From: an uncultured Chitinophaga sp.
GTDB lineage: Bacteria; Bacteroidota; Bacteroidia; 2-12-FULL-35-15
Direction: 5' to 3'
Length of the DNA stretch: 64,000 nt
Assembly (NCBI GenBank): GCA_964549315.1
Contig: CAZJUY010000007.1
Location: 37,567 to 101,566 of the forward strand
The notes under the pieces are model-generated. The model was not told the origin of the DNA and searched no databases. It saw nothing but the letters and a program-made list of their open reading frames with translations. Each line of letters opens with the position of its first letter. Positions within the stretch are counted from its first letter, which is position 1. Shown here piece by piece: positions 1,353 to 40,958 of this stretch. A program made the position numbers and the translations under genes.

Positions 1353-3472
1353 TAAATCAATTCAAGTATTATTGATGTTCCTTTTTTAAATGGCTCTCCT
1401 GGTGCTATGGATTGTTTTGCAACACTTCCACTGCCAATTATTTTTACATGGATGCCATTGTTTTCTAATAAATAAAAAGCATCTCTAGCAGTCATTCCAA
1501 CCAGGTTTGGAACAATTCCTTTTTTAAAATTTTCTTGCAAATTTTTTGCTGTTAGTTTTATAGAAGTAGAATCAACAACTGAAGCACTCACGTATTCTGA
1601 ATTTGAATCAGAAGGGCTTACTTTTACTTTTAAAGCATTTAAAACGTATGCTACTTCATCTGAAGAACCAGTTTTTGTAACAGGAATTTTTGCAGCAAAC
1701 ATTTCTTCCGAAGAATTTATTTCTTTATGAATTTCCAAACTGGTTGAGTAAACTTTATCTGCTACATCTTTAAATACTGGACCTGCTACAGCACCACCAT
1801 AGTAAGAATCTCCTGTTGGTGCACTAATAACAACTATACAAGAATATTTTGGGTTGTCGGCAGGGAAATAACCTACAAAAGAAGCTTGGTAAGTCATTTT
1901 TCCATTCACCATTCCCATTTGTGCAGTTCCTGTTTTTCCTGCAATTTGATAATCAGCTGCACGTAAGCTTTTTGCTGTGCCATTCAGTACAACACCCTCC
2001 ATCATTGTTTTTGCTTTTTCAATTGTTGCTTCAGAACATATTGAGGGATTGATTACTTCTGTTTCAAACACTTTTGTTGTTTTTCCTCTTTTGCGAACCT
2101 CTTTCACAAAAATGGGTTTTACCATTTTTCCGTTGTTTGCAACAGCATTGTAGAAAGCCAAAATTTGTAATGGAGTTATTCTTGACTCATAGCCATAGCT
2201 AATCCAAGGCAAAGAAATTTTTGACCAAGTTTTATCACTTGTATTTTTTAGGTATGGATCTGCTTCTCCTGGAATGCTTATTCCCAAAGCATTTCCAAGC
2301 CCCATGTTGTGCAATCTATCAATATACTTTTGTGGATTTTTTGAATAATATTTTGTAATAATTTTTGTAACACCAACATTAGATGATTCTTCAAAAACTC
2401 GTTGAACATTTACTTTGCTTTCTTTTGGAGGATGGGAATCACGTACTTTAGAGCCATAATATTCGCATTCTCCATTTCCAATATCTACTACTTCGTTTAG
2501 TGAAACATTAAAATCTTCCATTGCAGCAATTAGAGAGGGAAGTTTAAATGTAGATCCAGGCACAGTTGCTACACCAACTGCATAATTTAAGTTTTCAAAA
2601 TAAATAGAAGTGTCTTTCTTATTACGTGTTAGATTCGCAATAGCCTTTACTTCACCTGTTTTTACTTCCATTAAAACCAAACATCCATGACTTGCACCAT
2701 GTTTTTTCAAACAATTCAGTAATGAATTTTCCGCTACATCTTGTACATTAATATCAATTGTTGATACGATGTCCGAACCATCTTGTGGCTCAATTTCATT
2801 ATCTGTTTCTATTGGTCTCCAAACACCTCCAGCAATTCTTTGCATAACTCGGTGTCCATTAACACCTTGCAGATAGTCATTATAGGCAACTTCTAATCCA
2901 TAGGATTTTCCTGTTCCATTTTCATTTAATTTTCCAATAGTACGTGCAGCTAAAAATTGAAATGGGCGTTCACGTTTGTTTGTTTGTAGATAAACAAATC
3001 CTCCTCTGTTTTTTCCTCTTCTTAAAAGAGGAAATTTTTTCATTTTTTGTAAATCTGGATATGAAACATTTTTTTGTAGGACTAACCATCTATCTCCTTC
3101 TGCTCTTGCTTTTCTGAGCATACGTTTATATTCTTTTGCAGTTTTGTCATTAAATAAATTAGACAAGCAAATAGCTAATGAGTCAACATGCTTCTCAAAT
3201 ATTTCATTTGTAATTGGTTCTGTGTTTACATCAATTCCTGTTTCATAATAGGGTAGAGAAGTTGCCAATAAGCTGCCATTTGCATCATAAATATTTCCTC
3301 TTACAGCTTCAATATCAAAAAATCGAGTTGAAAAGCTTTCTGCTTTTGCTCTCCATTCATCCCCTTCAGAAAATTGTATGATTGCGACTTTGGAAATAAT
3401 AGCGACACCAAGAAGGCATATAATAAAATATATGAGATATACACGCCACAGTATGTCTTTTTTAATTTCCAA
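1352..3472 (-). CDS. ftsI: Class B penicillin-binding protein (FtsI/PBP3) with C-terminal PASTA domain
   Basis: N-terminal TM helix; SxxK (GSTFK), SxN (SSN) and KTG (KTGT) motifs; PASTA-like tail VPNLVGMTARDA; position in dcw cluster; TTG start. Confidence 0.93.
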   Translation of the reverse strand: MEIKKDILWRVYLIYFIICLLGVAIISKVAIIQFSEGDEWRAKAESFSTRFFDIEAVRGNIYDANGSLLATSLPYYETGIDVNTEPITNEIFEKHVDSLAICLSNLFNDKTAKEYKRMLRKARAEGDRWLVLQKNVSYPDLQKMKKFPLLRRGKNRGGFVYLQTNKRERPFQFLAARTIGKLNENGTGKSYGLEVAYNDYLQGVNGHRVMQRIAGGVWRPIETDNEIEPQDGSDIVSTIDINVQDVAENSLLNCLKKHGASHGCLVLMEVKTGEVKAIANLTRNKKDTSIYFENLNYAVGVATVPGSTFKLPSLIAAMEDFNVSLNEVVDIGNGECEYYGSKVRDSHPPKESKVNVQRVFEESSNVGVTKIITKYYSKNPQKYIDRLHNMGLGNALGISIPGEADPYLKNTSDKTWSKISLPWISYGYESRITPLQILAFYNAVANNGKMVKPIFVKEVRKRGKTTKVFETEVINPSICSEATIEKAKTMMEGVVLNGTAKSLRAADYQIAGKTGTAQMGMVNGKMTYQASFVGYFPADNPKYSCIVVISAPTGDSYYGGAVAGPVFKDVADKVYSTSLEIHKEINSSEEMFAAKIPVTKTGSSDEVAYVLNALKVKVSPSDSNSEYVSASVVDSTSIKLTAKNLQENFKKGIVPNLVGMTARDAFYLLENNGIHVKIIGSGSVAKQSIAPGEPFKKGTSIILELI

Positions 3473-3477
3473 TTAAC

Positions 3478-3888
3478 TTAATCCGCTTTAGTTGTTGTTT
3501 GTTTGTTTATTACTATTTTTTTAGGAGGAACAACGCTTTCCTTTATACCTGTTTGCAATTTTGCCAATGCTTTTGCAACTTCTGTTTGTTTGCTTTTTAC
3601 AACTAGCGAATCTTTTACAACTATGTACTGTGTTCTTAATTCTTTTATTTCATTTGTTAATCTGTTTAATTTTCTAACTTGATCGTCTGCATAATACCCG
3701 TTTGCTATGTAGCAGATAGCCAAAAACGAAAGAAAAAAAATGAATGGTAAATGTTTTATTGTTGTTTGCTTTGACAAAAAACTACCACTTACAACATTTG
3801 CAACAGAACGCACCATTTTATTGTCCTTTGCAGGATTATCCTTTTTGGATTCTTCAACTTTTGGTTTTTCCTTAAACTTGTTTGTCAT
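3478..3888 (-). CDS. ftsL: FtsL-like cell division protein
   Basis: Single TM helix followed by a coiled coil; lies between rsmH and ftsI. Confidence 0.8.
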   Translation of the reverse strand: MTNKFKEKPKVEESKKDNPAKDNKMVRSVANVVSGSFLSKQTTIKHLPFIFFLSFLAICYIANGYYADDQVRKLNRLTNEIKELRTQYIVVKDSLVVKSKQTEVAKALAKLQTGIKESVVPPKKIVINKQTTTKAD

Positions 3889-4784
3889 TATAATTTTTCT
3901 GCTACTCTTAATTTTGCACTTCTTGCTCTATTGTTTTGCTCTATTTCTTGTTCTGTTGGAACAATTGGTTTTCTTGTTATTTGTTTGAATGGTGTTAGTT
4001 GGTTTCCATAAAAATCTTTTTCCACTTCTCCTTCAAATTTTCCACTTCTCATAAATTTTTTTACTAACCTATCTTCTAATGAGTGATAAGACATCACTAC
4101 TAATCTTCCGTTTGGTTTTAAAACATCTAAACTTTGTGTCAACAATTCTTGCAGCGCATCTAGTTCTTTATTTACTTCTATTCTCAAAGCTTGAAACACT
4201 TGTGCGTAGTACTGATTTTCTTTTCCTTTTCTTACACATTTTGTAATCGCAGCTTTTAAATCGTCTACCGTTTCAATTTTTTTTTCTTTTCGTGTATGAA
4301 AGATTATTGATGCCAGATAACCAGCATTATTTACTTCTCCATATAGTTTAAAAACACGTTTTAACTCTTCTTCGCTGTAAGTGTTTAAAATATCAGCAGC
4401 AGTTAGGTTGCTATTTCTATCCATTCTCATATCCAACTTTGCATTAAATCGAATTGAAAATCCTCTTTCTGCTTCGTCAAATTGATGAGATGAAACACCT
4501 AAATCTGCTAGTAGCCCATCAATTGGAAGTGCGTTGTACAGTTTTAAAAAATTTTTCAAAAACCTGAAATTTTGTTTTATCAAAACAAATTTTGGGTCAT
4601 CAATTTTGTTTTTTACTGCATCATCATCTTGATCAAAAGCAAATAATTTTCCTGTAGTTAAATGCTTTAATATTTCTTTTGAATGACCACCACCACCAAA
4701 TGTTACATCCACATAAATACCTTCTGGGTTGATGTTTAAACCGTCTATACACTCTTTTAAAAGAACTGGGTTGTGATATTCCAT
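3888..4784 (-). CDS. rsmH: 16S rRNA (cytosine1402-N4)-methyltransferase
   Basis: H.PVLL.E, DVTFGGGGHS, DLGVSSHQ, FQALRIEVN, SYHSLEDR and SAKLR motifs; dcw context. Confidence 0.97.
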   Translation of the reverse strand: MEYHNPVLLKECIDGLNINPEGIYVDVTFGGGGHSKEILKHLTTGKLFAFDQDDDAVKNKIDDPKFVLIKQNFRFLKNFLKLYNALPIDGLLADLGVSSHQFDEAERGFSIRFNAKLDMRMDRNSNLTAADILNTYSEEELKRVFKLYGEVNNAGYLASIIFHTRKEKKIETVDDLKAAITKCVRKGKENQYYAQVFQALRIEVNKELDALQELLTQSLDVLKPNGRLVVMSYHSLEDRLVKKFMRSGKFEGEVEKDFYGNQLTPFKQITRKPIVPTEQEIEQNNRARSAKLRVAEKL

Positions 4785-5251
4785 TACTCGCTTGGTGTTG
4801 GATTTATTCCACCCATAACATCTTCAGCAAGTTTTTCGAAATTGCTGGTGCCTTCATTGATAAATTTCTCATAGGATTTTTTATCCCATATTTCAATTCT
4901 ATCTCCAGCAGCAGCCATTACCACATTTTTATTAATTCCTGAGAACGACATCATATCTTTTGAAATCAACAATCGTCCTGTACTATCTAATTCTACTGGT
5001 ATCACACCGTAGTTGAACATTCTGATGAATTCCACATTTTTTTTCACAAACTTGTTTAGCTTGTTTACTTCCTTCACCATCTCATTCCATGTAGCCATTG
5101 GATAAAGCTCAAGCGACTTGCTAAATATGCTTCGCTTCATTACAAAGCCCGCATCAAGCACACTGGTAAGCTGTTTTTTGAATGCAACAGGCAGCATTAC
5201 ACGACCTTTCGCATCAGCATTACATTCATATACTCCAAATAGGCTATTCAT
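4784..5251 (-). CDS. mraZ: Division/cell wall cluster transcriptional repressor MraZ
   Basis: Two AbrB-like repeats (DAKGRVMLP, LDSTGRLLI). Likely start is ATG at 5251; the ORF-track extension to 5296 runs into the repeat boxes. Confidence 0.93.
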   Translation of the reverse strand: MNSLFGVYECNADAKGRVMLPVAFKKQLTSVLDAGFVMKRSIFSKSLELYPMATWNEMVKEVNKLNKFVKKNVEFIRMFNYGVIPVELDSTGRLLISKDMMSFSGINKNVVMAAAGDRIEIWDKKSYEKFINEGTSNFEKLAEDVMGGINPTPSE

Positions 5252-5290
5252 AGTGGTTTTAGCTTTGTGGCGTAAAAATAAAGAAAATTT

Positions 5291-5320
5291 TACCACTTTT
5301 TACCACTTTTTACCACTTTT
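5291..5320 (-). promoter_or_regulatory. Three perfect 10-bp direct repeats (AAAAGTGGTA on minus strand), MraZ binding boxes
   Basis: TACCACTTTT x3 on plus strand, about 40 bp upstream of the mraZ ATG; GTGG cores one helical turn apart, as in known MraZ operators. Confidence 0.85.
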
Positions 5321-18966: not shown

Positions 18967-19009
18967 AAATAAAAAAGGCCTTGTGAATTTTACAAGGCCT
19001 TTTTTATTT
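18967..19009. terminator. Bidirectional intrinsic terminator between convergent genes
   Basis: AAATAAAAAAGGCCTTGT-gaatttt-ACAAGGCCTTTTTTATTT. Confidence 0.9.
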
Positions 19010-22000
19010 AAGATGATTTTTTACCAATTCGGCTAAAAATATTTTCTAATAAGTTGATGAACTTTTTAAGAATATCAAAATATAAGGTAATAGCCAAGAA
19101 TAAGCTCATAACCCATATTACAGATATATTGAACCAATAGGTGTCGTAATACTTGCCCAAGAATTTTTTGCGAGGTGCAAAGAAATGAGCTCGTCCTAAA
19201 TTAGACTCAACAGGATCTAAATAAACAGGGTCGATTTTTTGAATATATTCCCCATCTAAATCTAATATACGGTAAGGAGTAGTACGATTAGTAACTAAGT
19301 CTTTTAAACTTTCGTTTTCATAATCATCTTTACTTTTTAAATAAGCAACTCTTGATAAACTGTCTTTATTTAATTTTCCAATTTCAGTGTCTTTTAATTG
19401 TGTAGCACGTTTAAAATTATTTAAATAAACAGTTTTAAGCGTAGTGAAAAAATCACGAATTTGGTTAGCAACAGTAGGGCCGAAGCTACCAATGTTTAAA
19501 TTGTCTAAACCTCCGCATCTCAAATTTTCATTGCCAGGCAACATCAACTCTTTTTGGATTTCGCTTTTTATCATTAGCAATGCATCAATAACATCTTGCT
19601 TGTTTTCAGGTTTTTGATAGTTGCTTTCGCAGAAATCAATTTTTTTATTAAGTTCTGTTAGCCAATAATCTTTTTTGTATGTAGAAATACTCAACGCTTT
19701 GTCGTACTTGTAAAGTTTTTTGTTGAAAGCATTGTCTTTAAATTGTTTGATAGCAAGTGCTTCAAAAGCCCAGCGAGATGTCATTACTTCACCGCTAAAT
19801 GGAACCACATTTTGTGAAGTAATACTTGGGTTTAATTTGTCGAATTTTACAATTACACCACTTAATAATAATTGAGGAATAATTAAAAATGGAATTAAAA
19901 TATAAATAGTTACAGCAGAGTTAAAGCTAGCTGAAATATTTAAGCCCAACATATTAGCAAAGCAAGACGTAGTAAACAACACTAACCAATAAGAAAGTGT
20001 CATTCCTCCAATTTCTAAAACGTAGTTACCAACTAAAACAAACATAATCGTTTGTATAGCTGAAAGAACAAACATGATTACAATTTTGCTCCATAAATAA
20101 CTGCCTTTACTTAAGTTCAAGAATGATTCACGTTTTTGAATTTTTCTATCTCTGATAATTTCTTCGGCACTTACTGTTAAACCAATAAATAAAGCAACTA
20201 CAACAGCCATAAAAAGATAGGCAGGCATATTTTCGTTTTCTCTGAAAATGTATCCAACTTTGTTTGATAAATCAGTATTGTAAAATTTTATTAAGTAAGC
20301 AAGTATAAAAGCTAAAACAGGTGCTTCTAATAAATTGATTGATAAGTATTGTTTATTAGTTAATTTAGATAATACATCACGAGTAATAAATACTTTAAAT
20401 TGACTAAATTTGTTTGGGCGCTTAAATGTACTTTCTGGAATTTCAGTAAAATCAGTTACATCCTCAACTCTTTTTTCTAATTTCTCTCTGTAGTGTTTGT
20501 TCCATTCACTTGGAGACATTTTTCTGTTCAATGTCAAATTTCCATACTCATCTAATACTTTTGATTCAATAATATTAAATACTTGTTCTGGATTTACATT
20601 ACCACACTCAATACATTCGCTTTCGTTGCTATTTACATGGTTAACAACAGTTTTAAAGTATATAACTGAATCAACAGGGTTGCCATAATATATAGGATAA
20701 CCGCCCACATCTAAAATCATTAGTTTGTCAAACATTTTAAATATGTCTGACGATGGCTGATGGATTACAACAAAAACAAGTTTGCCTTTTAATGCAAGCT
20801 CTTTAAGTAAGTCCATAATATTTTCTGAGTCGCGAGAAGATAAACCAGAAGTAGGTTCATCTACAAATAGTACAGATGGTTCACGAATTAATTCCAACGC
20901 AATGTTTAATCGTTTACGTTGACCACCAGAAATTGTTTTTTCTAAAGGGCTACCAACTTTTAAATCACGTGTTTCAATTAAACCAATGTCGGTAAGTACT
21001 TCCACCACCATTTCAGAAATTTCAGCATCAGACTTGTTCCCAAAACATAGTTTAGCATTGTAAAATAAATTTTGAAAAACAGAAAGTTCTTCAATCAATA
21101 AATCATCTTGCGAAACGTGACCAATAACACCTTCAATTTGATTTTTTTCGGTGTGAATATTTATTCCATTTATTTTAACCGAACCAGCACTTGGTATTTC
21201 ATTTCCGTTTAATACGTTTAGTAATGTAGATTTACCCGCACCAGAACCTCCCATAATTCCAATTAATTTACCCGACTCTTCTCTGAAGTTGATATCACGT
21301 AAACCTAATTTTCCTCCTTTAAATTTGTACTCTAAATTTTGTACTACGAATGATACTTTTGCTTTAGAAGTGTCGCTCATAAATGAGCTTAAAATATCGC
21401 TATAATAAACTGGTTTTACTTTTGAACTTCTTAATGATGAACCAGGAGTTAGGATATAAACTTTTCCTTGAAATAAAATTTGTCCGTTAAGCAATAAATC
21501 ACTTTTTCCAAAATATACCAAAGCGTACATATTAACACTTGGTATCCAAAGCACTCGTGCTTGTCCAGTTACGCCTTCGGCATAGATATGTTTTGTTTCA
21601 ACTAATTTATGGTCGGTACGGTTGTCAATTATTAAAACTTTTGATGATTCAGGAATTTCGTTTTCTGATGCGCGAACAAATTTCATACAGCTTTTAAATT
21701 CTGTATCTTCAATATTAAATGTTTCTGCCACAGTAGTAACAAACTCTAACTCTTGTTCTGCAATTTCTTCATTAGAATTAATAAATTCAATCAAACGTAA
21801 TAACACAACCACTTTTTGAACCTGCGTAAGTTCCTCATTTATTTGAGTACAAATTCTTAAAACCTTAACAGAGTTTAATGAAGTACGTTTTGCTGTTCCA
21901 TCTTTCTTTTTGGTTACTTGATGATGCGCTTCTAAAAACTCATCAAATATTTTTAAATATTGGTCAACCAACTCTTGGTTAAGCTGTTGTTTCAAAAAGG

Positions 22001-22094
22001 ATTGTACAATTAATCGCCCGTTATCATTTATGCCATCAACTCTTGCAATAATTGCAAACATTTGCATCAGGGCTTTTAATATGCGTTCACTCAT
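19008..22094 (-). CDS. ABCG/White-type fused ABC transporter (NBD-TMD) with N-terminal TerB-like and FHA-like domains
   Basis: Walker A GGSGAGKST; signature ISGGQRKRLNIALEL; Walker B VLFVDEPTSGL; H-loop VIHQPS; six TM segments with SRWAFEAL before a ~200-aa loop. TerB/FHA calls rest on degenerate motifs. Confidence 0.85.
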   Translation of the reverse strand: MSERILKALMQMFAIIARVDGINDNGRLIVQSFLKQQLNQELVDQYLKIFDEFLEAHHQVTKKKDGTAKRTSLNSVKVLRICTQINEELTQVQKVVVLLRLIEFINSNEEIAEQELEFVTTVAETFNIEDTEFKSCMKFVRASENEIPESSKVLIIDNRTDHKLVETKHIYAEGVTGQARVLWIPSVNMYALVYFGKSDLLLNGQILFQGKVYILTPGSSLRSSKVKPVYYSDILSSFMSDTSKAKVSFVVQNLEYKFKGGKLGLRDINFREESGKLIGIMGGSGAGKSTLLNVLNGNEIPSAGSVKINGINIHTEKNQIEGVIGHVSQDDLLIEELSVFQNLFYNAKLCFGNKSDAEISEMVVEVLTDIGLIETRDLKVGSPLEKTISGGQRKRLNIALELIREPSVLFVDEPTSGLSSRDSENIMDLLKELALKGKLVFVVIHQPSSDIFKMFDKLMILDVGGYPIYYGNPVDSVIYFKTVVNHVNSNESECIECGNVNPEQVFNIIESKVLDEYGNLTLNRKMSPSEWNKHYREKLEKRVEDVTDFTEIPESTFKRPNKFSQFKVFITRDVLSKLTNKQYLSINLLEAPVLAFILAYLIKFYNTDLSNKVGYIFRENENMPAYLFMAVVVALFIGLTVSAEEIIRDRKIQKRESFLNLSKGSYLWSKIVIMFVLSAIQTIMFVLVGNYVLEIGGMTLSYWLVLFTTSCFANMLGLNISASFNSAVTIYILIPFLIIPQLLLSGVIVKFDKLNPSITSQNVVPFSGEVMTSRWAFEALAIKQFKDNAFNKKLYKYDKALSISTYKKDYWLTELNKKIDFCESNYQKPENKQDVIDALLMIKSEIQKELMLPGNENLRCGGLDNLNIGSFGPTVANQIRDFFTTLKTVYLNNFKRATQLKDTEIGKLNKDSLSRVAYLKSKDDYENESLKDLVTNRTTPYRILDLDGEYIQKIDPVYLDPVESNLGRAHFFAPRKKFLGKYYDTYWFNISVIWVMSLFLAITLYFDILKKFINLLENIFSRIGKKSS

Positions 22095-25868: not shown

Positions 25869-26861
25869 CTATTGAACAACATTAATTGATTGTCCAACTT
25901 TGAGCTTCACTCTGCCTGAACTCATGTTGTTCATCTGTTTTAAACGAGTAGTGGTAGTACCAAATCGTTTAGCAATTTCAAAAAGAGTATCACCCCTTTC
26001 TACTGTATAATATTTTGCGTTGCTTGGAAAAGCGGCTATACCCCATTTTGTCTTTTTTATTGTAAGTTCTTCGCAAAATAGTTTTTGATCTTTTAATGCA
26101 ACAATATACTTTGGATTAATTGGAACGCCTTTTAATCTGATTTCAAAATGCAAATGAGTTCCAGTTGAATGCCCTGTACTGCCACCTAATCCAATAAGTT
26201 GACCAGCGGATACAATGTCACCAGGTTTTACTTTTATTTTCCAGAGGTGAGCATAAACAGTTTCTAAGCCATTGTAATGTCTGATGATAACCACATTTCC
26301 AAAACCTCCAAAACGTTTTGCAATACGTACCATTCCACCAAACGCAGCGGATACCTTATCTCCTTTATTCAAATCAATATCAATTCCGTTGTGCTGTGTA
26401 CTATCTCTCCATCCAAAATAAGACGTTATTGGCCCATCAAAAGGATGGAAATAATCATCTTGTCCGTCTGCTTTTAGGTTAATCGTTAAAGAGCTGTCAC
26501 CCTTTAGTTTTAACATGTCTTTTTCTGGAAATAGATTATTTATTTCCCAACCTGCGTATATGTCGGCTGCAGGGAATTTGTTTTTGTCAAAATATTTTGA
26601 ATTTGATTTAATATGTGAAATTGCCAAATTGATTTCTGAAATTAAATCGCTAGGAATTGTATCCATTTCTAATAAAAAATCAACCAGGGTGTATAGCTGT
26701 TCTTTATTCATGTTTTGAATTAAGCTAGAAACGGGCGGTTTAGTGGATACGGTATCGTCAGGACCAGAAATAAAATTTCTTGCCTTTGATTGAAAAGTGC
26801 TGCAAATCAATAAAAGACTTGCGATAAATGTGTATGAAATATGTTTTTTCAATTCAAACAA
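25869..26861 (-). CDS. M23 family metallo-endopeptidase with C-terminal LysM domain
   Basis: Signal peptide; HNGID (HxxxD) and HLH (HxH) zinc motifs; LysM YTVERGDTLFEIAKRFG. Confidence 0.92.
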   Translation of the reverse strand: MFELKKHISYTFIASLLLICSTFQSKARNFISGPDDTVSTKPPVSSLIQNMNKEQLYTLVDFLLEMDTIPSDLISEINLAISHIKSNSKYFDKNKFPAADIYAGWEINNLFPEKDMLKLKGDSSLTINLKADGQDDYFHPFDGPITSYFGWRDSTQHNGIDIDLNKGDKVSAAFGGMVRIAKRFGGFGNVVIIRHYNGLETVYAHLWKIKVKPGDIVSAGQLIGLGGSTGHSTGTHLHFEIRLKGVPINPKYIVALKDQKLFCEELTIKKTKWGIAAFPSNAKYYTVERGDTLFEIAKRFGTTTTRLKQMNNMSSGRVKLKVGQSINVVQ

Positions 26862-26937: not shown

Positions 26938-29631
26938 TTATTTTTTAAGAAGCATTTTTTCTTTTTTATTTACACCAAACTCTAAAATACGATCAATAAA
27001 ATCGTATGGTTTGTAGCCATTGATGGCTGTTTGATGAAAGATACAAGTAGCGGGTGTCATACCTGGCAATGAATTTACTTCAATAAAAATTATTTCCACT
27101 TTTTCATCGTTGTTTATTCTTACAAAAGCATCAATACGGCAATATCCTTGAACATTTAGAGCTTTTGCTGCATTGCCCAATGTTTGTTTTACGATATCTG
27201 AAATTTTTTGTCGTTCTGCAGGGTCGGCAGAATAGCGAGCAGGTGTGATGTTTTGTCCTTGTCCTGCAAGGAATTTTTCTTCTAAGGATAAAACTTCTCC
27301 TTCGCTTAAGGCTTCAGATGCCTCAAATACTTCGTAAACAATATCTCCATTTTTATCATATTTTGTAAGCATTCCACCTGTAATTTCTAAAAAATGTTTT
27401 GCCTCTTTTCTGCTAATTAATTCTTCAACAAGTATTACATTTTTTTGTGGAAATTCTTCTTTATCTTTTATATGTAACAAATCTGCTGCTAATTGATTTA
27501 GCATTTCTTGTTTGCGGAAAATAAGTGTAGCAAAAGCATTAAACTCTTCGGGTGTTTTTATTTTTTTTACTGCAGAAGAACATCCATCGTCAACAGGCTT
27601 TGCTATAAAAGGATATTTTATTTTTTCTTTGATAGTTTTTAAAACGGAATCTTTATCAGAACTCCAATCTTTTTCGGCAACAAGTAAATGTTCTGCAACT
27701 AAAAAACCATTTTGTTTTAAAATTTCGTTTGTTCTGTATTTATCAATTGTAATTTGTGAACTATCTACACCACTTCCGTTATAAGGCAACCCTATTTTTT
27801 CTAAATTTGCTTGAACAGCACCGTCTTCGCCTGGCCTGCCATGCAGTGCAATAAATACAGCATCCACCGTTTTTGCTAATTCATCATAAGTAAACCGTTT
27901 TGGTTTTGCTAAATTATCTGCACTCACATATTTAGTTGTAATGGATGATGCTTCATCAATAATCTGTTTTACTAAATCATGAATTTTATAGTTTTCAATT
28001 TTTTCTTTTATATCATCTGCATTGTCCTTCAACAAAATATTGATTGGAATTTGATACATGATGTGTTCATCTGCATTGCCCGTTAAAAAAATGGGAATAG
28101 GTTCATATTTAGTAGAAGAAGCTAATTTTTCGTAAATATTTCTTCCGCTTTCAACAGAGATATGTCTTTCAGATGAGTAACCGCCAAGGATTACAGCAAC
28201 TTTGATTTTCTTAGTAGTTGATGATTTGTCCTGCTTTATTGATTCATCCAATTGATTTAATAATTTTTTAAATACAACTGCATATGAGTTAGCTTTTATT
28301 CGTTGTGCCAAAGAAGTACGAATAATATAGGTCAAAAATTGAGATGGATTCAATCCTATTTCTGCAGCTTGATGAAAGAAAAAAGAAGAAGGCATCATCC
28401 CAGAAGTAGTATTAGGATCATTCAAAAATATTTTTCCATCTGTAGAAAGGAAGCCATCAATACGAGCATACACATCAAAATTTAAAGCATAAAATAATCG
28501 TTCACATTCTTTTCTTATTGCTTGAATTTGCTCGTTAGGCAAATCAATTGGTGTAATTTTTCTTGATAAACCAGGCAAGTACTTTGAACGATAATCAAAC
28601 AATTCTTTTCCTTTTCTTATTTCAGTTGGAGGCAGAGCGATTGCTTTCCCATTTTCATCTTGAGCAACAATACATGAAAATTCTTTGCCATCAATAAATC
28701 CTTCAATTAACACAGTTGTTTCACCATCTATTGCTTCTAAAACGGCTCCTTCTTTTTCTGTTGTAAATAGTTTATCTAAAAAAGAAATTAAATCGGCAGG
28801 ATGATTTATGATTGTTGAATTGATTTTTACTGGTAACGAAATTCCTTCACGAATATCTGCAAGCACACGAACAAAATTATTTTTTTCTTCTGCTGATTTG
28901 TTTTTCCATTCTGTTGCATCTACCCATTTTGTGAAAAAAGCTTTCTCCACAGCTTCCATAAAAGAGAAATTATCATCTTTTGAAAGAATAGTTACACCAA
29001 TAGATGAACCTTGGTTAGCTGGTTTTATAACTAATGGAAATCCAATTTCTTTTTTTACTTTTTCAAAAACACCTTTGCAATTCCCAGTGATATAATCGTT
29101 TTTATCAATTGTAATAAATTTCGGACTATTGAATCCTGCACTCACCATCATTCTTTTTTGAATGCTTTTATCAATACCAATTGCAGAAGGCAAAACACCA
29201 GAGCCTGAATATGGGATTCCTAAAAATTCAAACAGACCTTGAATCTTCCCGTCTTCACCAAATGGACCATGTAAACACAAAAAAGCAAAATCAAAATAAG
29301 TTCTTAAATCATCTGCATTGATTTTTTTTCCAATTTTATTTATCATTTCAAGTTGATCTGAAGCGTCAAATTCTCCAATTTGCTCAGCATACACTTGAAA
29401 ATCGCCTTGTTTATTTGGTATAAATTCTACTGGAGGATAAAAATCACGAACACTGCCTTTGTAAATAAATTCCCAATTGAGTAAAACAAAATTTCCAAAA
29501 CTATCTACAAAAACAGGTACAGCATCAAAAAGTGATTTGTTTAAATTGTCATAAACAGTTCTTCCGCCAGCAAATGATATTTCTCGCTCCTTTGAAAATC
29601 CACCGAAAATGATTCCTATTTTTATTTTCAT
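26938..29631 (-). CDS. ddl: Tandem two-domain D-alanine--D-alanine ligase family protein (897 aa)
   Basis: Two full Ddl motif sets: GGFSKEREIS / GGYSSERHIS, LHGPFGEDG / LHGRPGEDG, KPANQGSS / KPVDDGCSS, RIDGF / RIDAF, DPNTTSGM / EVNSLPGM. Confidence 0.88.
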   Translation of the reverse strand: MKIKIGIIFGGFSKEREISFAGGRTVYDNLNKSLFDAVPVFVDSFGNFVLLNWEFIYKGSVRDFYPPVEFIPNKQGDFQVYAEQIGEFDASDQLEMINKIGKKINADDLRTYFDFAFLCLHGPFGEDGKIQGLFEFLGIPYSGSGVLPSAIGIDKSIQKRMMVSAGFNSPKFITIDKNDYITGNCKGVFEKVKKEIGFPLVIKPANQGSSIGVTILSKDDNFSFMEAVEKAFFTKWVDATEWKNKSAEEKNNFVRVLADIREGISLPVKINSTIINHPADLISFLDKLFTTEKEGAVLEAIDGETTVLIEGFIDGKEFSCIVAQDENGKAIALPPTEIRKGKELFDYRSKYLPGLSRKITPIDLPNEQIQAIRKECERLFYALNFDVYARIDGFLSTDGKIFLNDPNTTSGMMPSSFFFHQAAEIGLNPSQFLTYIIRTSLAQRIKANSYAVVFKKLLNQLDESIKQDKSSTTKKIKVAVILGGYSSERHISVESGRNIYEKLASSTKYEPIPIFLTGNADEHIMYQIPINILLKDNADDIKEKIENYKIHDLVKQIIDEASSITTKYVSADNLAKPKRFTYDELAKTVDAVFIALHGRPGEDGAVQANLEKIGLPYNGSGVDSSQITIDKYRTNEILKQNGFLVAEHLLVAEKDWSSDKDSVLKTIKEKIKYPFIAKPVDDGCSSAVKKIKTPEEFNAFATLIFRKQEMLNQLAADLLHIKDKEEFPQKNVILVEELISRKEAKHFLEITGGMLTKYDKNGDIVYEVFEASEALSEGEVLSLEEKFLAGQGQNITPARYSADPAERQKISDIVKQTLGNAAKALNVQGYCRIDAFVRINNDEKVEIIFIEVNSLPGMTPATCIFHQTAINGYKPYDFIDRILEFGVNKKEKMLLKK

Positions 29632-29681: not shown

Positions 29682-30266
29682 CTAACTTTTGTTAATTGCA
29701 TTTAAGTATTCAACAAGTTTATTAACTGCAATAGCACGATGGGATATTTTGTTTTTTTCTGACAAGTCCATTTCTGCAAATGTTTGATTATGGCCATTCG
29801 GAACAAAAATAGGATCGTATCCAAAACCTTGCGTCCCTCTTTTTTCTTCCAAAATAGTCCCATTTACTACACCTTCAAATAGTTTTTCATTACCATTTAT
29901 CACAAGAGAAATAACCGTTTTAAAACGAGCTTTTCTGTTTGTAATTCCTTTTAATTCCGTTAAAATTTTATCCATATTAGCATTTGCATCTTTTGCCTCT
30001 CCCGCATATCTTGCCGACAATGCCCCAGGTTTACCACCTAAAGCTTCAACTTCTAAGCCCGTATCGTCAGCAAAACAATTGTAGTTGTAATTGTTTTGTA
30101 CAAAAAAAGCTTTTTGAGATGCGTTTCCTTCAATTGTAGCTTGTGTTTCTGGCACTTCTTCCAAACAGTTTATGTCTATTAAGCTAAGTATTTCAATGCT
30201 TTTAGGAATAAGCGATTGGATTTCTTTTGCTTTATTTTGATTGGCTGTGGCAAATACGAGTTTCAT
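29682..30266 (-). CDS. rdgB: Non-canonical purine NTP pyrophosphatase (RdgB/HAM1)
   Basis: [38 protein letters not shown]. Confidence 0.95.
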
Positions 30267-37263: not shown

Positions 37264-38421
37264 ATGTTACAAAATAAAATTGTGGGTTATCAGGCTTGCA
37301 GCAAATGTATTTTAGACACAAACGATGATTCGGAAATTTATTTTGATGAACGTGGTATCTGTAATTATTGTAAGGAATATGAGGTCATTAATAGTAAAAA
37401 TCGATTAGAGGATAGTGCATTTAAAGAAGAGGAGCTTAAAATATTAGTTGATAAAATAAAAAGTAGAGGCCATAAAAATAAATATGATTGTGTAATTGGA
37501 GTAAGTGGAGGTGTAGATAGTACATACTTGATATACAAAGCCACAGAGTTAGGTCTACGCCCACTAATCGTTCATTATGACAATGGATGGGATTCTGAGT
37601 TGGCTGTTATTAATATCGAGAATATTGTTAAAAAACTAGATTTAGATTTAATAACTTATGTTAATGATTGGCATGAATTTAAAGATATCCAATTAGCTTT
37701 TTTAAAAGCGTCAGTTTTGGATATTGAATTAATAACAGATCAAGCAATTTTAGCGGTATTATATAATACTGCAATTCAATATAAAATTAAATATATCCTA
37801 TACGGCACAAACATAACAACTGAGGCTATTTTGCCAAAAAGTTGGTATCATTGGAAGATCGATTTATTGAATATTACTGGAATTCATAAGAAATTTGGAA
37901 CTTTACCGATAAAAACATACCCTCAATTGGGTTTTTTTAAGCATTATTTTATCACAAAATTTATTAAAATTGAAAGTGTCCATTTATTAAATTATTTAAA
38001 TTATAATAAAAATAAAGCCAAAGAAACAATTGTTAAGGAGTTGAATTGGAGGGATTACGGAGGGAAGCATTATGAGTCAATTTTTACTAGGTTTTATCAA
38101 GCGTATATTTTACCCGCTAAATTTAAGATTGACAAAAGAAAAGCTCACTTGTCAACTCTTATATGTTCAGGACAAATTTCTAGGGAAGAAGCCTTAAAAG
38201 AATTGACAAAGCCTTTGTATGAAAAAGACAAGTTTCAAGACGATTATGAGTATGTTTTGAAAAAATTAGGATTAGAAGTGAGCGAGTTCGAAGATTATAT
38301 GTCTTTACCTGTTAAGTCTCACTTGGACTATCCTTCATATTTTAAAAGCCATTATAAATATCAAAAATGGCTTTCATTATTTCTTAGTAATACTATATTT
38401 TTATTTAAAAAAAAGAAATGA
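37264..38421 (+). CDS. N-acetyl sugar amidotransferase (WbuX/WbpG-like, PP-loop ATPase)
   Basis: CSKC and CNYC, YDCVIGVSGGVDS, DNGW, GGKHYES, SREEAL; directly upstream of the hisH/hisF-like pair. ATG 37264 preferred. Confidence 0.88.
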   Translation: MLQNKIVGYQACSKCILDTNDDSEIYFDERGICNYCKEYEVINSKNRLEDSAFKEEELKILVDKIKSRGHKNKYDCVIGVSGGVDSTYLIYKATELGLRPLIVHYDNGWDSELAVINIENIVKKLDLDLITYVNDWHEFKDIQLAFLKASVLDIELITDQAILAVLYNTAIQYKIKYILYGTNITTEAILPKSWYHWKIDLLNITGIHKKFGTLPIKTYPQLGFFKHYFITKFIKIESVHLLNYLNYNKNKAKETIVKELNWRDYGGKHYESIFTRFYQAYILPAKFKIDKRKAHLSTLICSGQISREEALKELTKPLYEKDKFQDDYEYVLKKLGLEVSEFEDYMSLPVKSHLDYPSYFKSHYKYQKWLSLFLSNTIFLFKKKK

Positions 38422-39029
38422 TAACGATTGTCGATTATGGTTTAGGGAATTTAGCATCAATTAAAAATATGTTAAAAAAAATACATATTTCTTCTGTTAT
38501 AACGTCTGATCCAAATTTAATAGCAAATTCTACTAAATTAATATTACCAGGAGTTGGTTCTTTTGATTTTGGTATGGAACAATTAAAACAGTTGGATTTA
38601 ATCTCAATTTTGAACCAAAAAGTACTGATTGAAAAAACACCAATACTAGGGATTTGTCTCGGAATGCAGCTGCTTACGAAGCGAAGTGAAGAAGGTGTTT
38701 TGTCTGGCCTTGGGTGGATAGATGCTGAAACATTAAAATTTGACTTTCCAAGCCATGAGAATTTAAAAGTACCTAATATGGGTTGGAATGAAGTAAGCAT
38801 TCAAAAAAAAAGCAGATTAACTCAAAATCTTGAAAACAACTCTAGGTTTTATTTTGTTCATTCATACTATGTAAAGTGCAACATTGAAGAAGATACATTG
38901 TTAAAAACCAATTATGGAATTGAATATACATGTGCTATAGAAAAAGAAAATATTTTTGGTGTTCAATTTCATCCTGAAAAAAGTCACAAATTTGGTATGC
39001 ATATATTAAATAATTTTTCGAAAATATAA
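38418..39029 (+). CDS. Glutamine amidotransferase HisH-like (WbuY/HisH2), glycan-locus copy
   Basis: DYGLGN, PGVGSF, GICLGMQ (catalytic Cys), FYFVHSY, QFHPEKS. Confidence 0.9.
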   Translation: MITIVDYGLGNLASIKNMLKKIHISSVITSDPNLIANSTKLILPGVGSFDFGMEQLKQLDLISILNQKVLIEKTPILGICLGMQLLTKRSEEGVLSGLGWIDAETLKFDFPSHENLKVPNMGWNEVSIQKKSRLTQNLENNSRFYFVHSYYVKCNIEEDTLLKTNYGIEYTCAIEKENIFGVQFHPEKSHKFGMHILNNFSKI

Positions 39030-39032
39030 ATT

Positions 39033-40958
39033 ATGAGGCGTCCAAGAGTTATTCCAACACTTTTATATAATTACAGGGGTCTTGTAAAGTCTAAAAAATT
39101 CAAGGGTCATGTTTACATAGGAGATCACCTGAATGCAATAAAGATATTTAATGAAAAAGAGGTAGATGAAATAATATTTTTGGATATCGAAAAAGGGATA
39201 AAAAATAAAAAACCTGATTTAGAATTAATAAAAGAAATAGCGAGTGAATGTTTTATGCCTTTGTGTTATGGCGGTGGAATATCAACAGTGGATGAAGTTA
39301 GAGAGATATTAAGATTGGGAGTTGAGAAAGTTGCAATAAACAGCAACGCATACAGAAAACCCGAATTGATAAAAAGTATTGTTCAATCTTTTGGAAGTCA
39401 AAGTGTGGTTATATCGATTGACGTAAAAAAAAATAAAAATTCTAGATATAGTGTTTATATAGACAACGGGCAAACAGATACAGGAATAGATCCCATTTCC
39501 TATGCTGTAAATATGGAAAGACTTGGTGCTGGAGAACTATTATTAAATTCAATTGATAGAGATGGTACTTATGATGGATATGATACTTGGCTTATAGAAC
39601 AAGTAAGCAAGGCGGTATCTATTCCTGTAATTGCTTGTGGAGGAGGAAACGGGGTAAAAGATTTTTTAAATGCTATTAGAAATGGGGCATCTGCAGTAGC
39701 AGCTGGTAGTTTGTTTGTTTTTTATGGAAGACTAAAAGCTGTGCTAATTAATTTTCCTACAAACGAAGAACTTTTTTTAATATTCAATAAACAAGAAACA
39801 TATACAAGAGACTATTTTAATTTAAAAATTTTTCATATTACAACTTGGTATCCTCATAAAAAACAGGAGATAGAGGCAGGATTCATTAAGGAGCACATTG
39901 ATTCTTTGAGAAACTATTGTTATAACTATGTGTTTAATCTTGATTTTGTTGAATCGGAAAGAACATTATTAAAATTTGAATTTTTCAAAGAATCGAATTA
40001 CGAGTATATTTATACATGTAAAACTAGGATAAAAAATACTTTAATAAAAGAGTTGATTGCTTCAGCTTGGTTTTTTTATGTATTCTTAAAGCACAAAGGA
40101 AACAAATTTGATGTTGTTAATATTCATATTGCATATCCTGTTGCTACTTTTCTTTCTTTCTTTAAAAGAATTATTAGGATTCCAATTGTAATAAATGAAC
40201 ATTGGTCTGCATACCATTTTAATTTCTATGTTGATAAAAATAAGAGGGGGTTAAGAAAAGTGAAAAAAATATTTTTTATGTGTGAAAAAATTTTTGTAGT
40301 ATCAAAATCATTAGCGTTAGATATAGTTAATTTTTCTGGTAATAAAAGATTAGAATATTCAATAATACCTAATATCGTAGATAATAAAATTTATTCCATA
40401 AAACGAGATTTTTTGCCTTCGTCTCCAACATTTTTAATGGTTAGTATTTGGTCAAATATTAAAAAACCAATAATTATAATTGAAGTTTTTAAAAAAATAG
40501 TTTCAGCTTTTCCAGATGCAATTTTAAGAATAGGAGGATATGGTATTCAAATTGAAGCTATGGAAAAAAAAATAAAAGAATTAGATTTGGAAGAAAATGT
40601 GTTCTTATTAGGTAAATTAAATAGAATAGAGGTTGCGAATGAGCTTAATAAATCAACAGCTTTAATACATTCATCTTCATATGAAACATTTTCGGTAATT
40701 TGTGCAGAAGCTATTTCCTGTGGCGTCCCTGTTATAGCTTCAAATGTTGGTGGAATTCCAAGTTTTATTAACAACCAAAATGGGATTTTGGTTGATGACG
40801 AAAGTATTGAGGAATGGTACGATGCTATAACTAAAATGATAAAAGACAGGGCTATTTTTAATGATGTTGACATTTCCAAAAAAGCACATTTACAGTTCTC
40901 TCCAGATAATGTTGGCGAAAAATATTTTGAAGAATTAAAGAAACTTATCCAGAAATGA
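39033..40958 (+). CDS. Fusion: HisF-like cyclase (WbuZ/HisF2, ~aa 1-255) plus GT4 glycosyltransferase (~aa 264-641)
   Basis: HisF part: VDEIIFLDI, PLCYGGGI, GAGELLLNSIDRDGT, VIACGG, AVAAGSLFVF. GT4 part: KIFHITTWYP, NEHWS, IPNIVD, ETFSVICAEAISCGVPVIASNVGG. One uninterrupted frame. Confidence 0.88.
   Translation: MRRPRVIPTLLYNYRGLVKSKKFKGHVYIGDHLNAIKIFNEKEVDEIIFLDIEKGIKNKKPDLELIKEIASECFMPLCYGGGISTVDEVREILRLGVEKVAINSNAYRKPELIKSIVQSFGSQSVVISIDVKKNKNSRYSVYIDNGQTDTGIDPISYAVNMERLGAGELLLNSIDRDGTYDGYDTWLIEQVSKAVSIPVIACGGGNGVKDFLNAIRNGASAVAAGSLFVFYGRLKAVLINFPTNEELFLIFNKQETYTRDYFNLKIFHITTWYPHKKQEIEAGFIKEHIDSLRNYCYNYVFNLDFVESERTLLKFEFFKESNYEYIYTCKTRIKNTLIKELIASAWFFYVFLKHKGNKFDVVNIHIAYPVATFLSFFKRIIRIPIVINEHWSAYHFNFYVDKNKRGLRKVKKIFFMCEKIFVVSKSLALDIVNFSGNKRLEYSIIPNIVDNKIYSIKRDFLPSSPTFLMVSIWSNIKKPIIIIEVFKKIVSAFPDAILRIGGYGIQIEAMEKKIKELDLEENVFLLGKLNRIEVANELNKSTALIHSSSYETFSVICAEAISCGVPVIASNVGGIPSFINNQNGILVDDESIEEWYDAITKMIKDRAIFNDVDISKKAHLQFSPDNVGEKYFEELKKLIQK

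Follow-up and report, generated by a model that had tools for sequence, protein, structure and literature searches.

The open reading frame (ORF) analysed here almost certainly encodes a hetero-tandem D-alanine ligase, in which two anciently diverged Ddl modules are joined in one polypeptide, as judged from its architecture and homology. The first module (A) has Tyr and the second (B) has Phe at the omega-loop position that governs second-substrate specificity, and judging from the aligned relatives this pairing is the rule of a large tandem family common to Bacteroidota and Patescibacteria, not the quirk of one genome. The window, i.e. the whole stretch of 64,000 nucleotides that was analysed, carries the gene on its minus strand:
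26938..29631, minus strand: tandem (A+B) D-Ala-D-X ligase ORF, 897 amino acids and a TAA stop codon at 26938-26940 (ORF list, Pfam)
28288..29631, minus strand: module A, residues 1-448, Tyr-type Ddl (alignments to DdlB)
28216..28287, minus strand: helical linker between the modules, residues ~449-472 (AF2 secondary structure)
26941..28215, minus strand: module B, residues 473-897, Phe/Cys-type Ddl (alignments and family counts)

Pfam matched this ORF twice with Dala_Dala_lig_N and twice with Dala_Dala_lig_C (PF01820 as two stretches, 173.6 bits; PF07478 in both halves, 199.3 bits). Both domains score above the gathering threshold in each half, as is characteristic of the superfamily of D-Ala-D-Ala ligases (ATP-grasp). 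The AF2 model of the whole protein has a pLDDT of 89.8 and a pTM of 0.89, the latter suggesting that the two modules may be held in a fixed arrangement. Around the linker it shows helices at 429-447 and 451-470, and module B opens with a strand at 476-483. Contigs of four independent metagenome runs match the ORF without indels or joints, one of them (1,417 bases) spanning the A-B junction, so the tandem arrangement is no assembly artefact. No account of tandem or fused Ddl-Ddl enzymes was found in the literature searched.

Among antibiotic targets Ddl is a textbook case, and the Tyr/Phe residue of its omega loop is the textbook switch of its specificity. In DdlB, the triad Y216-E15-S150 governs dipeptide versus depsipeptide activity, and the Y216F mutant gains depsipeptide synthesis; Phe at this position marks the enzymes of Leuconostoc and Lactobacillus, in which the changes F261Y (Leuconostoc) and F258Y (L. 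reuteri) reverse depsipeptide activity (PMC3378904, PMC5996685). The two omega loops of the tandem protein are as follows:
28549..28611, minus strand: module A omega loop, residues 341-361, GKELFDYRSKYLPGLSRKITP, with the Y351 codon at 28579-28581 and the K350 codon at 28582-28584
27241..27303, minus strand: module B omega loop, residues 777-797, EGEVLSLEEKFLAGQGQNITP, with the F787 codon at 27271-27273 and the K786 codon at 27274-27276

The preliminary description, relying on an alignment by eye, had assigned FDYRSK-Y351 of the first domain to the Tyr state of the switch and LSLEEK-F787 of the second to the Phe state. Three independent alignments uphold this. MAFFT, run on three sequences including E. 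coli DdlB (translated from NC_000913), places both K350-Y351 and K786-F787 on K215-Y216, and Y351 and F787 again occupy the Y216 column in a 79-sequence family alignment. Profile-profile comparison of module B with DdlB, VanA, VanG and Xanthomonas DdlA by hhalign placed EVLSLEEKF on TFYDYEAKY and DGCSS on EGSSV with a probability of 100%. F787 does correspond to DdlB Y216, as Y351 does in the first half. The residue equivalence rests on MAFFT and hhalign, since phmmer searches with module B against PDB sequences left the omega-loop region unaligned. Y351, encoded by TAC, closes FDYRSKY, and F787, encoded by TTC, closes LSLEEKF. In module A the pLDDT falls to ~73 at the omega loop, in keeping with the mobility expected of a lid.

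Tyr occupies the Y216 position in module A of 273 out of 274 tandem proteins, which fall into three size classes, and Phe occupies it in module B of all 272 that could be aligned there. Judged by these counts, the Tyr/Phe pattern is far beyond chance. The module B motif LSLEEKF[LQ]xGxGxNxTP is kept in all three size classes, and the loop tyrosines Y210 and Y212 of DdlB are both replaced by Leu.

Further differences between the modules were found at the positions of DdlB Ser150 and S281-L282:
27580..27582, minus strand: C684 codon TGT, module B counterpart of DdlB Ser150 (MAFFT, family alignment, hhalign)
29005..29007, minus strand: S209 codon TCA, module A counterpart of DdlB Ser150 (alignment to DdlB)
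27043..27048, minus strand: T862-C863, module B counterparts of DdlB S281-L282 (alignments, family counts)

The hydrogen-bond triad Glu15-Ser150-Tyr216 is thus preserved in module A as E15-S209-Y351, whereas module B has E488-C684-F787. Cys at the Ser150 position is shared by module B of 273 of the 274 tandem proteins. Thr at position 862 is nearly invariant in module B; at position 863, Bacteroidota have Cys and the Patescibacteria class has Val. In DdlB structures, S281-L282 bind the second substrate through its carboxylate, and the counterpart of Glu488 binds the amino group of D-Ala1. Codons mapped through the alignment in 76 species vary only synonymously at the Tyr/Phe and Ser/Cys sites: TTC/TTT 20/56 for F787, TAC/TAT 25/51 for Y351, and TGT 35, TGC 41 for C684. 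The single-base change that would turn F787 into Tyr occurs in none of these 76 species. F787, C684 and the Leu pair replacing Y210/Y212 are fixed across phyla, and module B has invariant residues of its own as well as an inserted conserved motif, LLKDNADDI, at 533-541. Two other roles for the cysteines were considered and rejected: Cys684 is no catalytic nucleophile, as a few family members have Ser at that site, and a Cys684-Cys863 redox switch is no general mechanism, position 863 being Val in the Patescibacteria class.

Both modules otherwise keep the catalytic apparatus. Counterparts of DdlB E15, H63, K97, K144, K215, R255, D257, E270, N272 and G276 are present in each, E270 being represented by Asp (D405) in module A. 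The residues characteristic of the superfamily (E15, K97, K144, K215, R255, D257, E270, N272, G276, S281) are likewise found in both, with E270D in A and S281T in B. The module A set (E15, H121, K155, K203, S209, K350, Y351, R390, D392, D405, N407, S416, F417) is invariant in 76 orthologues, and among 39 diverse representatives it varies only at S416, F417 and K203 (Lys in 32, Arg in 7). The corresponding module B residues are E488, H597, K631, K678, C684, S685, K786, F787, R832, D834, E851, N853, G857, T862 and C863. Among the diverse representatives, the departures are Arg for K144 in 7 of 39 A modules and Ala for G276 in 3 of 39 B modules. From this residue conservation, both modules are probably catalytically active. 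With the catalytic residues kept in both halves, it is plausible that the protein has a second active site whose pocket for the second substrate is altered, and the Cys684 and Leu replacements in module B make this case stronger than it was in the preliminary description.

We compared the modules with curated profiles and structures. The NCBIfam Ddl models TIGR01205, NF002378 and NF002528 give the whole protein 387-391 bits against cut-offs of 243-262, a score that is only the sum of two modules: module A alone reaches 228-234 bits, just below the cut-offs, and module B alone 158-167 bits, well below them, so that its top score of 167 bits lies under every NCBIfam Ddl cut-off (243 for the lowest). 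Module B scores 106 bits with the D_ala_D_lac model NF000206 (cut-off 550) and 73-88 bits with the VanA/B/D/F/M/O models (cut-offs 700-775), the VanA model itself giving 83 against 775. In a neighbour-joining tree, A and B form separate clades, B being a clade of its own. Given these sub-cut-off scores and this separate clade, module B is, as far as profiles and tree can tell, no relative of the known D-Ala-D-Lac ligases. The modules are ~25% identical to each other and 25-29% identical to DdlB, VanA, VanG and Xanthomonas DdlA; judging from the tree, they are ancient paralogues, and the A/B split is ancient and maintained. The Phe of module B seems to have become fixed independently of that of lactic acid bacteria and much earlier. 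With Foldseek, the top 50 matches of the AF2 model are all Ddl-family structures, including VanA, VanG and LmDdl2. The top target-normalised TM-score among the matches listed is 0.94, to 1iow (DdlB Y216F), for an aligned module that the output does not specify, and such TM-scores have no power to separate Ddl subtypes.

The preliminary description had presented a possible D-Ala-D-Lac activity as unexpected in a Gram-negative Bacteroidota. This framing is not supported, the pairing being no peculiarity of one Gram-negative genome: hundreds of uncultured Bacteroidota and Patescibacteria share it, in a large tandem family that extends to the latter phylum. Fused A+B proteins come in size classes of ~900 amino acids (uncultured Bacteroidia), ~800 (Patescibacteria) and ~700. 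The modules also occur as adjacent genes in the order A, B, PASTA, fused to MurF, or fused to a membrane anchor and PASTA domains, and in a Kaiserbacteria locus the tandem gene lies between those for glutamate racemase and alanine racemase. Relatives of ~1,200 amino acids with a tandem-Ddl-PASTA organization have lost the catalytic residues in both halves. The PASTA fusions and operons, together with these catalytically dead relatives, suggest that precursor synthesis is linked to wall sensing, and the widespread pairing suggests that module B has its own substrate preference. All named matches are metagenome-assembled genomes, and no cultured host with known peptidoglycan chemistry was found among them.

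The tandem gene is flanked in the window by two genes on the same strand:
29682..30266, minus strand: Ham1/RdgB-type NTP pyrophosphatase gene (Pfam), 50 bases upstream of the tandem ORF
25869..26861, minus strand: peptidoglycan hydrolase-type gene (Peptidase_M23 and LysM by Pfam, signal peptide by eye), 76 bases downstream of the tandem ORF

The Ham1/RdgB-type gene is the most conserved neighbour, lying upstream on the same strand in 30 related loci. The M23/LysM gene fills the slot held by a PASTA gene in 29 related loci and falls outside their 16 most recurrent neighbour families. A Pfam scan of 40 of the 56 long ORFs in the window revealed no gene for a VanH-like D-lactate dehydrogenase, a VanX-like dipeptidase or serine racemase, and none was found among the recurrent neighbours of 80 related loci. 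No second Ddl gene was found in the window or within 10 kb of any related locus. The tandem enzyme is probably the housekeeping Ddl of the source lineage and probably the sole Ddl of the minimal-genome Patescibacteria.

As an overall explanation, a hetero-tandem ligase whose module B is altered in its choice of second substrate has, in our judgement, about an even chance of being correct. Module A (Glu15-Ser209-Tyr351) would be a conventional D-Ala-D-Ala ligase. Module B, which retains the residues binding ATP, Mg, acyl phosphate and carboxylate, would activate D-Ala normally; having lost both triad hydroxyls (Cys684 for Ser, Phe787 for Tyr) and with the substrate-facing side of its omega loop remodelled, it would show lower or different selectivity for the incoming nucleophile. 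A relaxed second-substrate choice fits the absence of both hydroxyls and is predicted by analogy with DdlB Y216F and the Phe-type ligases of lactic acid bacteria; the chances that module B differs from module A in nucleophile preference are about even. The leading candidate nucleophile would be D-lactate or another D-2-hydroxy acid; module B would probably make some D-Ala-D-Ala too, and the products of both modules would feed MurF. Park and Walsh (in 1997) and Park, Lin and Walsh (in 1996) reportedly found that LmDdl2 and DdlB Y216F still make D-Ala-D-Ala, and the latter authors that DdlB S150A also gains D-Ala-D-Lac activity. In a cell without cytosolic D-lactate, module B would then act simply as a second D-Ala-D-Ala ligase. 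The analogy with the ligases of lactic acid bacteria is also imperfect, because those keep the triad Ser where module B has Cys. D-Lac-ended precursors are unlikely to be present in vivo. It is just as doubtful that module B is dedicated to depsipeptide synthesis or to an alternative nucleophile, so that Patescibacteria and the source lineage of freshwater and wastewater Bacteroidia would build a constitutive mix of D-Ala-D-Ala and D-Ala-D-Lac (or D-Ala-D-X) stems with a single bifunctional housekeeping enzyme. In that case non-canonical peptidoglycan termini would have an ancient chromosomal origin that owes nothing to van clusters or to the enzymes of lactic acid bacteria.

It is possible, although we would not put it at even chances, that both modules make D-Ala-D-Ala only in the cell, the fusion linking covalently, as a pseudo-dimer, what is normally a dimeric enzyme, and Cys and Phe in module B tuning kinetics or regulation. 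The tunable traits could be drug insensitivity, inhibition by product, pH profile or how tightly the second D-Ala binds. The presence of all catalytic residues in both modules agrees with such a role, as do a pTM compatible with a fixed two-module body, the D-Ala-D-Ala activity reportedly kept by DdlB Y216F, and the gene's place in other lineages, where its neighbour is MurF or the racemase for alanine or glutamate and no alternative-substrate gene is present. Mere redundancy, however, leaves unexplained why Phe/Cys/Thr in B versus Tyr/Ser/Ser in A are fixed across phyla, including the genome-reduced Patescibacteria, why the one-base change from Phe to Tyr is never tolerated, and why the substrate face of the module B omega loop differs throughout (Y210L, Y212L). 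Module B's failure to reach any curated Ddl cut-off, its B-specific invariant residues and LLKDNADDI insertion, and the small residues (Cys, Val or Ala) that take the place of L282 and would make the pocket larger could instead mean that it joins another substrate pair (a non-D-Ala first substrate, or a product that does not end up at the tip of the peptidoglycan stem), the fusion coupling two distinct steps. We consider this very unlikely, given that Glu488 is invariant, as are R832 and T862, counterparts of transition-state and carboxylate binders, and that the MurF, Alr and MurI associations all point to a D-Ala-D-X step. Slightly less probable still is a non-catalytic module B serving as nucleotide-binding or regulatory partner of module A: the ~1,200-residue tandem-Ddl-PASTA relatives indicate that the scaffold can persist without catalysis, but all module B catalytic residues are kept in the tandem protein and at least 270 relatives, with synonymous-only codon variation, which is the signature of an active site.

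A single polypeptide combines both states of the specificity switch, and at least two phyla have conserved this combination. If the Phe/Cys head of this hetero-tandem ligase makes a different product, very abundant uncultured bacteria would have an unrecognised peptidoglycan chemistry, and precursors of the depsipeptide type would appear to have an old origin independent of van. Should D-Ala-D-Ala be the product of both heads, the family would still be a natural experiment on the role of the triad and on what turned a dimeric enzyme into an obligate single-chain heterodimer.

Compared with known ligases, the tandem enzyme shares the three-domain ATP-grasp fold of canonical D-Ala-D-Ala ligases such as E. 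coli DdlB (EC 6.3.2.4; 2dln, 1iov; target-normalised TM 0.92-0.94), and module A matches them in its Glu-Ser-Tyr triad and its catalytic residues. It differs from them in having two modules per chain, conserved insertions of large size in the central and N-terminal domains of both modules, Asp for E270 in module A, and Cys and Phe for Ser150 and Tyr216 in module B. The VanA/B/D D-Ala-D-Lac and VanC/E/G D-Ala-D-Ser ligases belong to the Ddl family and have altered second-substrate specificity. The paper on the VanA structure reportedly places His244 at the site of DdlB Y216; in the HMMER sequence alignment of VanA, H244 is not in the Y216 column. In VanG, Tyr258 occupies the Y216 position, Phe252 matching DdlB Y210 in the VanA-VanG alignment, which excludes Phe at Y216 as a mark of D-Ala-D-Ser ligases of the VanC/VanG type. 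Unlike van systems, the tandem gene has no van operon context among the window ORFs scanned or the conserved neighbours. Enterobacterial DdlA and DdlB, paralogues that are both Tyr-type and unfused, are a precedent for two Ddl isozymes per genome. The MurC-Ddl fusion of Chlamydiae (NF011171) is a precedent for a Ddl fused to another peptidoglycan enzyme, whereas the fusion partner in the tandem enzyme is a second, differentiated Ddl module. The Phe-type ligases of Leuconostoc, Lactobacillus, Pediococcus and Weissella (LmDdl2, 1ehi) share with module B the Phe at the Y216 position (PMC5996685, PMC3378904). The structural match to 1ehi is no better than that to other Ddl (target-normalised TM 0.80), and these lactic acid bacterial enzymes are single-module proteins that keep the triad Ser (S186 in L. 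reuteri, PMC3378904), where module B has Cys.

By Pfam, the tandem Ddl contains Dala_Dala_lig_N and Dala_Dala_lig_C twice each, and so consists of two Ddl modules joined head to tail. A helical linker joins them in the AlphaFold2 secondary structure.

26938..29631 (-): tandem Ddl ORF, 897 residues
Residues 1-448 of the tandem Ddl: module A, Tyr-type
Residues 473-897 of the tandem Ddl: module B, Phe/Cys-type

The preliminary description had placed Y351 and F787 by eye at the omega-loop specificity site of Ddl enzymes. Residue equivalence with E. coli DdlB (sequence from NC_000913) was determined from a three-sequence MAFFT alignment, a family alignment of 79 sequences and, for module B, a profile-profile alignment by hhalign with DdlB, VanA, VanG and Xanthomonas DdlA (probability 100%). 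All three match K215-Y216 of DdlB with K350-Y351 in module A and K786-F787 in module B, and S150 with S209 and C684, respectively. The by-eye placement was thus right, and the equivalence of Y351 (TAC, 28579-28581, last residue of FDYRSKY) and F787 (TTC, 27271-27273, last residue of LSLEEKF) with Y216 can be regarded as solid on these alignments. An assembly artefact was rejected as the origin of the fusion: the ORF is covered, free of indels and joints, by contigs from four independent metagenome runs, and one contig spans the A-B junction. Bioreactor, wastewater, biofilm, lake, drinking-water and seawater metagenomes all contain near-identical copies of the gene, so its host is evidently a bacterium widespread in aquatic or engineered systems.

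AlphaFold2 modelled all 897 residues from a 41-sequence alignment with a mean pLDDT of 89.8 and a pTM of 0.89, confidence dipping only at the two omega loops. From the model, the two modules seem to hold a defined position relative to each other. Each of the 50 matches that Foldseek listed is a structure of the Ddl family; VanA, VanG and LmDdl2 are included. The best target-normalised scores among them belong to DdlB Y216F (1iow, 0.94) and DdlB (2dln, 0.92), with LmDdl2 and VanA at about 0.80-0.82; these scores, which are not assigned to A or B, confirm the fold and do not discriminate Ddl subtypes.

Among the DdlB residues checked, counterparts of E15, H63, K97, K144, K215, R255, D257, E270, N272, G276 and S281 are retained in both modules. 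In module A the sole change among these catalytic residues is Asp for E270 (D405), and in its pocket L282 is replaced by Phe (F417). Module B carries Cys684 for S150, Phe787 for Y216, Thr862 for S281 and Cys863 for L282, and both omega-loop tyrosines of DdlB, Y210 and Y212, are Leu. The Mg-binding Glu270 of DdlB is Asp (window 28417-28419 for D405) in nearly every module A of all three size classes described below, a member of about 700 residues (P0215) keeping Glu there; in module B this position is Glu. The N-terminal domains of both modules also contain an insertion, located at the same site and with a conserved motif of its own in each; DdlB has neither motif.

Window 29431-29478, residues 52-67: module A motif WxFxYKGSxRDFYPP, with Y57, G59, D63 and F64 invariant
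Window 28009-28035, residues 533-541: module B motif LLKDNADDI, with D540 invariant

In 76 orthologues from species-level genomes (61-85% identical), the listed A and B residues are invariant except at position 863 (Cys in 74, Ala in 2). Across these species the codons of the F, Y, C, T, K and E residues vary only synonymously, without replacement, and TTY is one transversion from TAY. This is direct evidence that the A/B difference is itself under purifying selection. A set of 39 diverse representatives, reaching down to about 40% identity, likewise shows no change at the triad (Glu15-Ser150-Tyr216 in DdlB) and core catalytic positions; the sites that vary are K144 in A, G276 in B and the L282 position. 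When all fetched sequences were pooled (274 tandem proteins), module A had Tyr at the Y216 position in 273, and module B had Phe there in all 272 that could be aligned; 273 of the 274 had Cys in module B where DdlB has S150. An exhaustive search of representatives revealed three size classes.

About 900 residues: insertions in both modules
About 800 residues: A compact, B expanded
About 700 residues: A and B both compact

In every class A has Ser/Tyr/Asp270 and B has Cys/Phe/Thr281; judged from these sequences, the pattern is a family rule and not a local accident. The largest class is confined to uncultured Bacteroidota or Bacteroidia genomes, and the hosts of the middle class are mostly Patescibacteria (Peregrinibacteria, Kaiserbacteria, Taylorbacteria), where annotation is often hypothetical. 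A scan of species genomes gave at least 584 stretches encoding a relative, one carrier being the closed genome of Candidatus Pollutiaquabacter aromativorans. The Phe/Cys tandem Ddl is widespread in uncultured Bacteroidia and Patescibacteria. The preliminary description had called a D-Ala-D-Lac or other D-Ala-D-X product unexpected in a Gram-negative Bacteroidota; the feature is not peculiar to this genome, as tandem proteins across both groups follow the same rule. The initial observation thus holds and is much strengthened, and its interpretation is borne out in part: the residue equivalence is solid, as is the case for a functional differentiation of the two heads. Counted over conserved columns, identity is about 25% between A and B and 25-29% between either of them and DdlB, VanA, VanG and Xanthomonas DdlA. 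A neighbour-joining tree groups all A modules together with the A-like single genes in one clade and all B modules together with the B-like single genes in a second, all reference enzymes lying outside both. As A and B are no closer to each other than to the references, we infer an ancient, maintained duplication rather than a recent one.

The genomic associations point to the housekeeping step that makes D-Ala-D-X, where X stands for the second substrate. On a Kaiserbacteria contig the tandem gene is flanked by glutamate racemase and alanine racemase genes, with murA and mreB near. In one locus (L085:485-9939) the tandem Ddl is fused to MurF (P0260, 1,262 aa), together with MurL (MurL_N + epimerase), a Mur ligase and a Mur ligase/alanine racemase fusion (876 aa); the peptidoglycan precursor enzymes of this cluster are unusually fused. 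A recurrent order in Bacteroidota is Ham1, tandem ddl, PASTA-domain protein, T9SS-tailed protein and RluD-like pseudouridine synthase; its ddl-PASTA-rluD part is presumably similar to the ddl locus that other Bacteroidota usually have. The PASTA-domain gene lies directly downstream in 29 of 80 related loci (L003, L004, L070 and 26 others). The window has none near the tandem ddl, and the slot directly downstream is filled by an M23+LysM peptidase gene. Three proteins (P0122, P0125, P0126) combine tandem Ddl, linker, one membrane helix and C-terminal PASTA domains in a single chain. Conversely, L088:8001-11671 is a split system of consecutive genes on one strand for an A-type Ddl (477 aa), a B-type Ddl (425 aa) and a PASTA protein (274 aa), where the Cys/Phe motifs, DEGCSAAV and LSVEEKFLAGAGQNITP, belong to the second gene. 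A stand-alone B-type (Cys/Phe) gene also exists (P0222, 402 aa; L082:8001-9209, also L083 and L084), with no other Ddl gene within some 7-8 kb to either side in L082 and over a shorter distance downstream in L083 and L084. If its genome has no A-type gene elsewhere, module B must be able to supply the wall alone. Neither the 64-kb window nor the 10 kb around any related locus contains a second Ddl gene.

Nine proteins of about 1,200 residues (P0163, P0169, P0173, P0176, P0182, P0184, P0198, P0231, P0268) also join a tandem Ddl to a membrane helix and PASTA domains. Most catalytic residues are gone from both Ddl halves, so they look like pseudoenzymes that keep the scaffold. In L091 a canonical ddl is absent from the 10 kb around such a gene, as it is from the 5.5 kb upstream and 240 bases downstream covered in L092; in both loci a MatE transporter gene is upstream.

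Elsewhere in the window, 1352-5296 (-) is the start of a division/cell-wall cluster. PASTA-ended penicillin-binding proteins are more typical of Gram-positives.

4784-5296 (-): 170-aa ORF, in the usual position of mraZ
3888-4784 (-): MraW/RsmH
3478-3888 (-): 136-aa ORF
1352-3472 (-): FtsI-type penicillin-binding protein with a C-terminal PASTA domain
19008-22094 (-), outside that cluster: 1,028-aa ORF with an N-terminal TerB-like domain (weak match, 22.3 bits, below the 24.4 gathering score), ABC ATPase and ABC-2 membrane domain

A large polysaccharide or O-antigen-type cluster (30329-50775) contains a DegT aminotransferase, several GT1/GT2 glycosyltransferases, an ABC-2 transporter pair, epimerases/dehydratases and two Acyl_transf_3 genes; at 38418-40958 a glutamine amidotransferase adjoins a HisF-like domain fused to a GT1 glycosyltransferase.

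In DdlB, the choice between dipeptide and depsipeptide is linked to a hydrogen-bond triad of Y216, E15 and S150; with Y216F the enzyme acquires D-Ala-D-Lac synthesis, F261Y in Leuconostoc and F258Y in L. reuteri move specificity the opposite way, and in lactic acid bacteria a Phe is predictive of intrinsic vancomycin resistance (PMC3378904, PMC5996685). Module B lacks both triad hydroxyls in the alignment (Cys684, Phe787). Like DdlB Y216F, DdlB S150A reportedly gains depsipeptide activity (Park, Lin and Walsh 1996). Module B keeps the Glu that we take to hold the amino group of the first D-Ala in DdlB structures, and the Arg and Ser/Thr that presumably hold the transition state and the second-substrate carboxylate. 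The most economical reading is that module A would be a normal D-Ala-D-Ala ligase, that module B would activate D-Ala normally and accept a different or broader nucleophile, and that both products would pass to MurF. We hold the chances of such an altered or relaxed nucleophile choice to be about even. The main rival, that both heads make D-Ala-D-Ala and the changes in B tune kinetics or regulation, seems to us a serious possibility, if a somewhat doubtful one.

If the nucleophile of module B is altered, D-lactate would be the leading candidate by analogy with Y216F, and the D-Ala-D-Lac product proposed in the preliminary description is a reasonable hypothesis. This candidacy is weakened, since Phe-type enzymes are said, in papers of the Walsh group, still to make D-Ala-D-Ala, and since the window ORFs scanned and the conserved neighbours included no gene for a D-lactate dehydrogenase, a VanX-like protein or an alternative racemase. 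The Cys of module B and its low scores against curated D-Ala-D-Lac families, both described below, weaken it further. D-Lac-ended precursors in vivo are unlikely in our estimation. The product question is directly testable with recombinant protein.

The domains and catalytic residues found place the tandem Ddl in the Ddl superfamily. No paper describing a Ddl-Ddl tandem was found in the literature searched, and databases name it D-alanine--D-alanine ligase, UDP-N-acetylmuramate--alanine ligase or hypothetical protein. Against the NCBIfam Ddl models module A alone scores 234 bits (cut-off 262) and resembles a divergent canonical Ddl; module B alone scores 167 bits (cut-off 243). Module B also stays below NF000206, the D_ala_D_lac model (106 bits, cut-off 550), and the VanA-type models (73-88 bits, cut-offs 700-775). 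Module B is a distinct Phe/Cys subfamily, which resembles the Phe-type ligases at the key position but belongs to neither the lactic acid bacterial nor the Van families; the triad Ser is retained in the lactic acid bacterial enzymes and replaced by Cys in module B.
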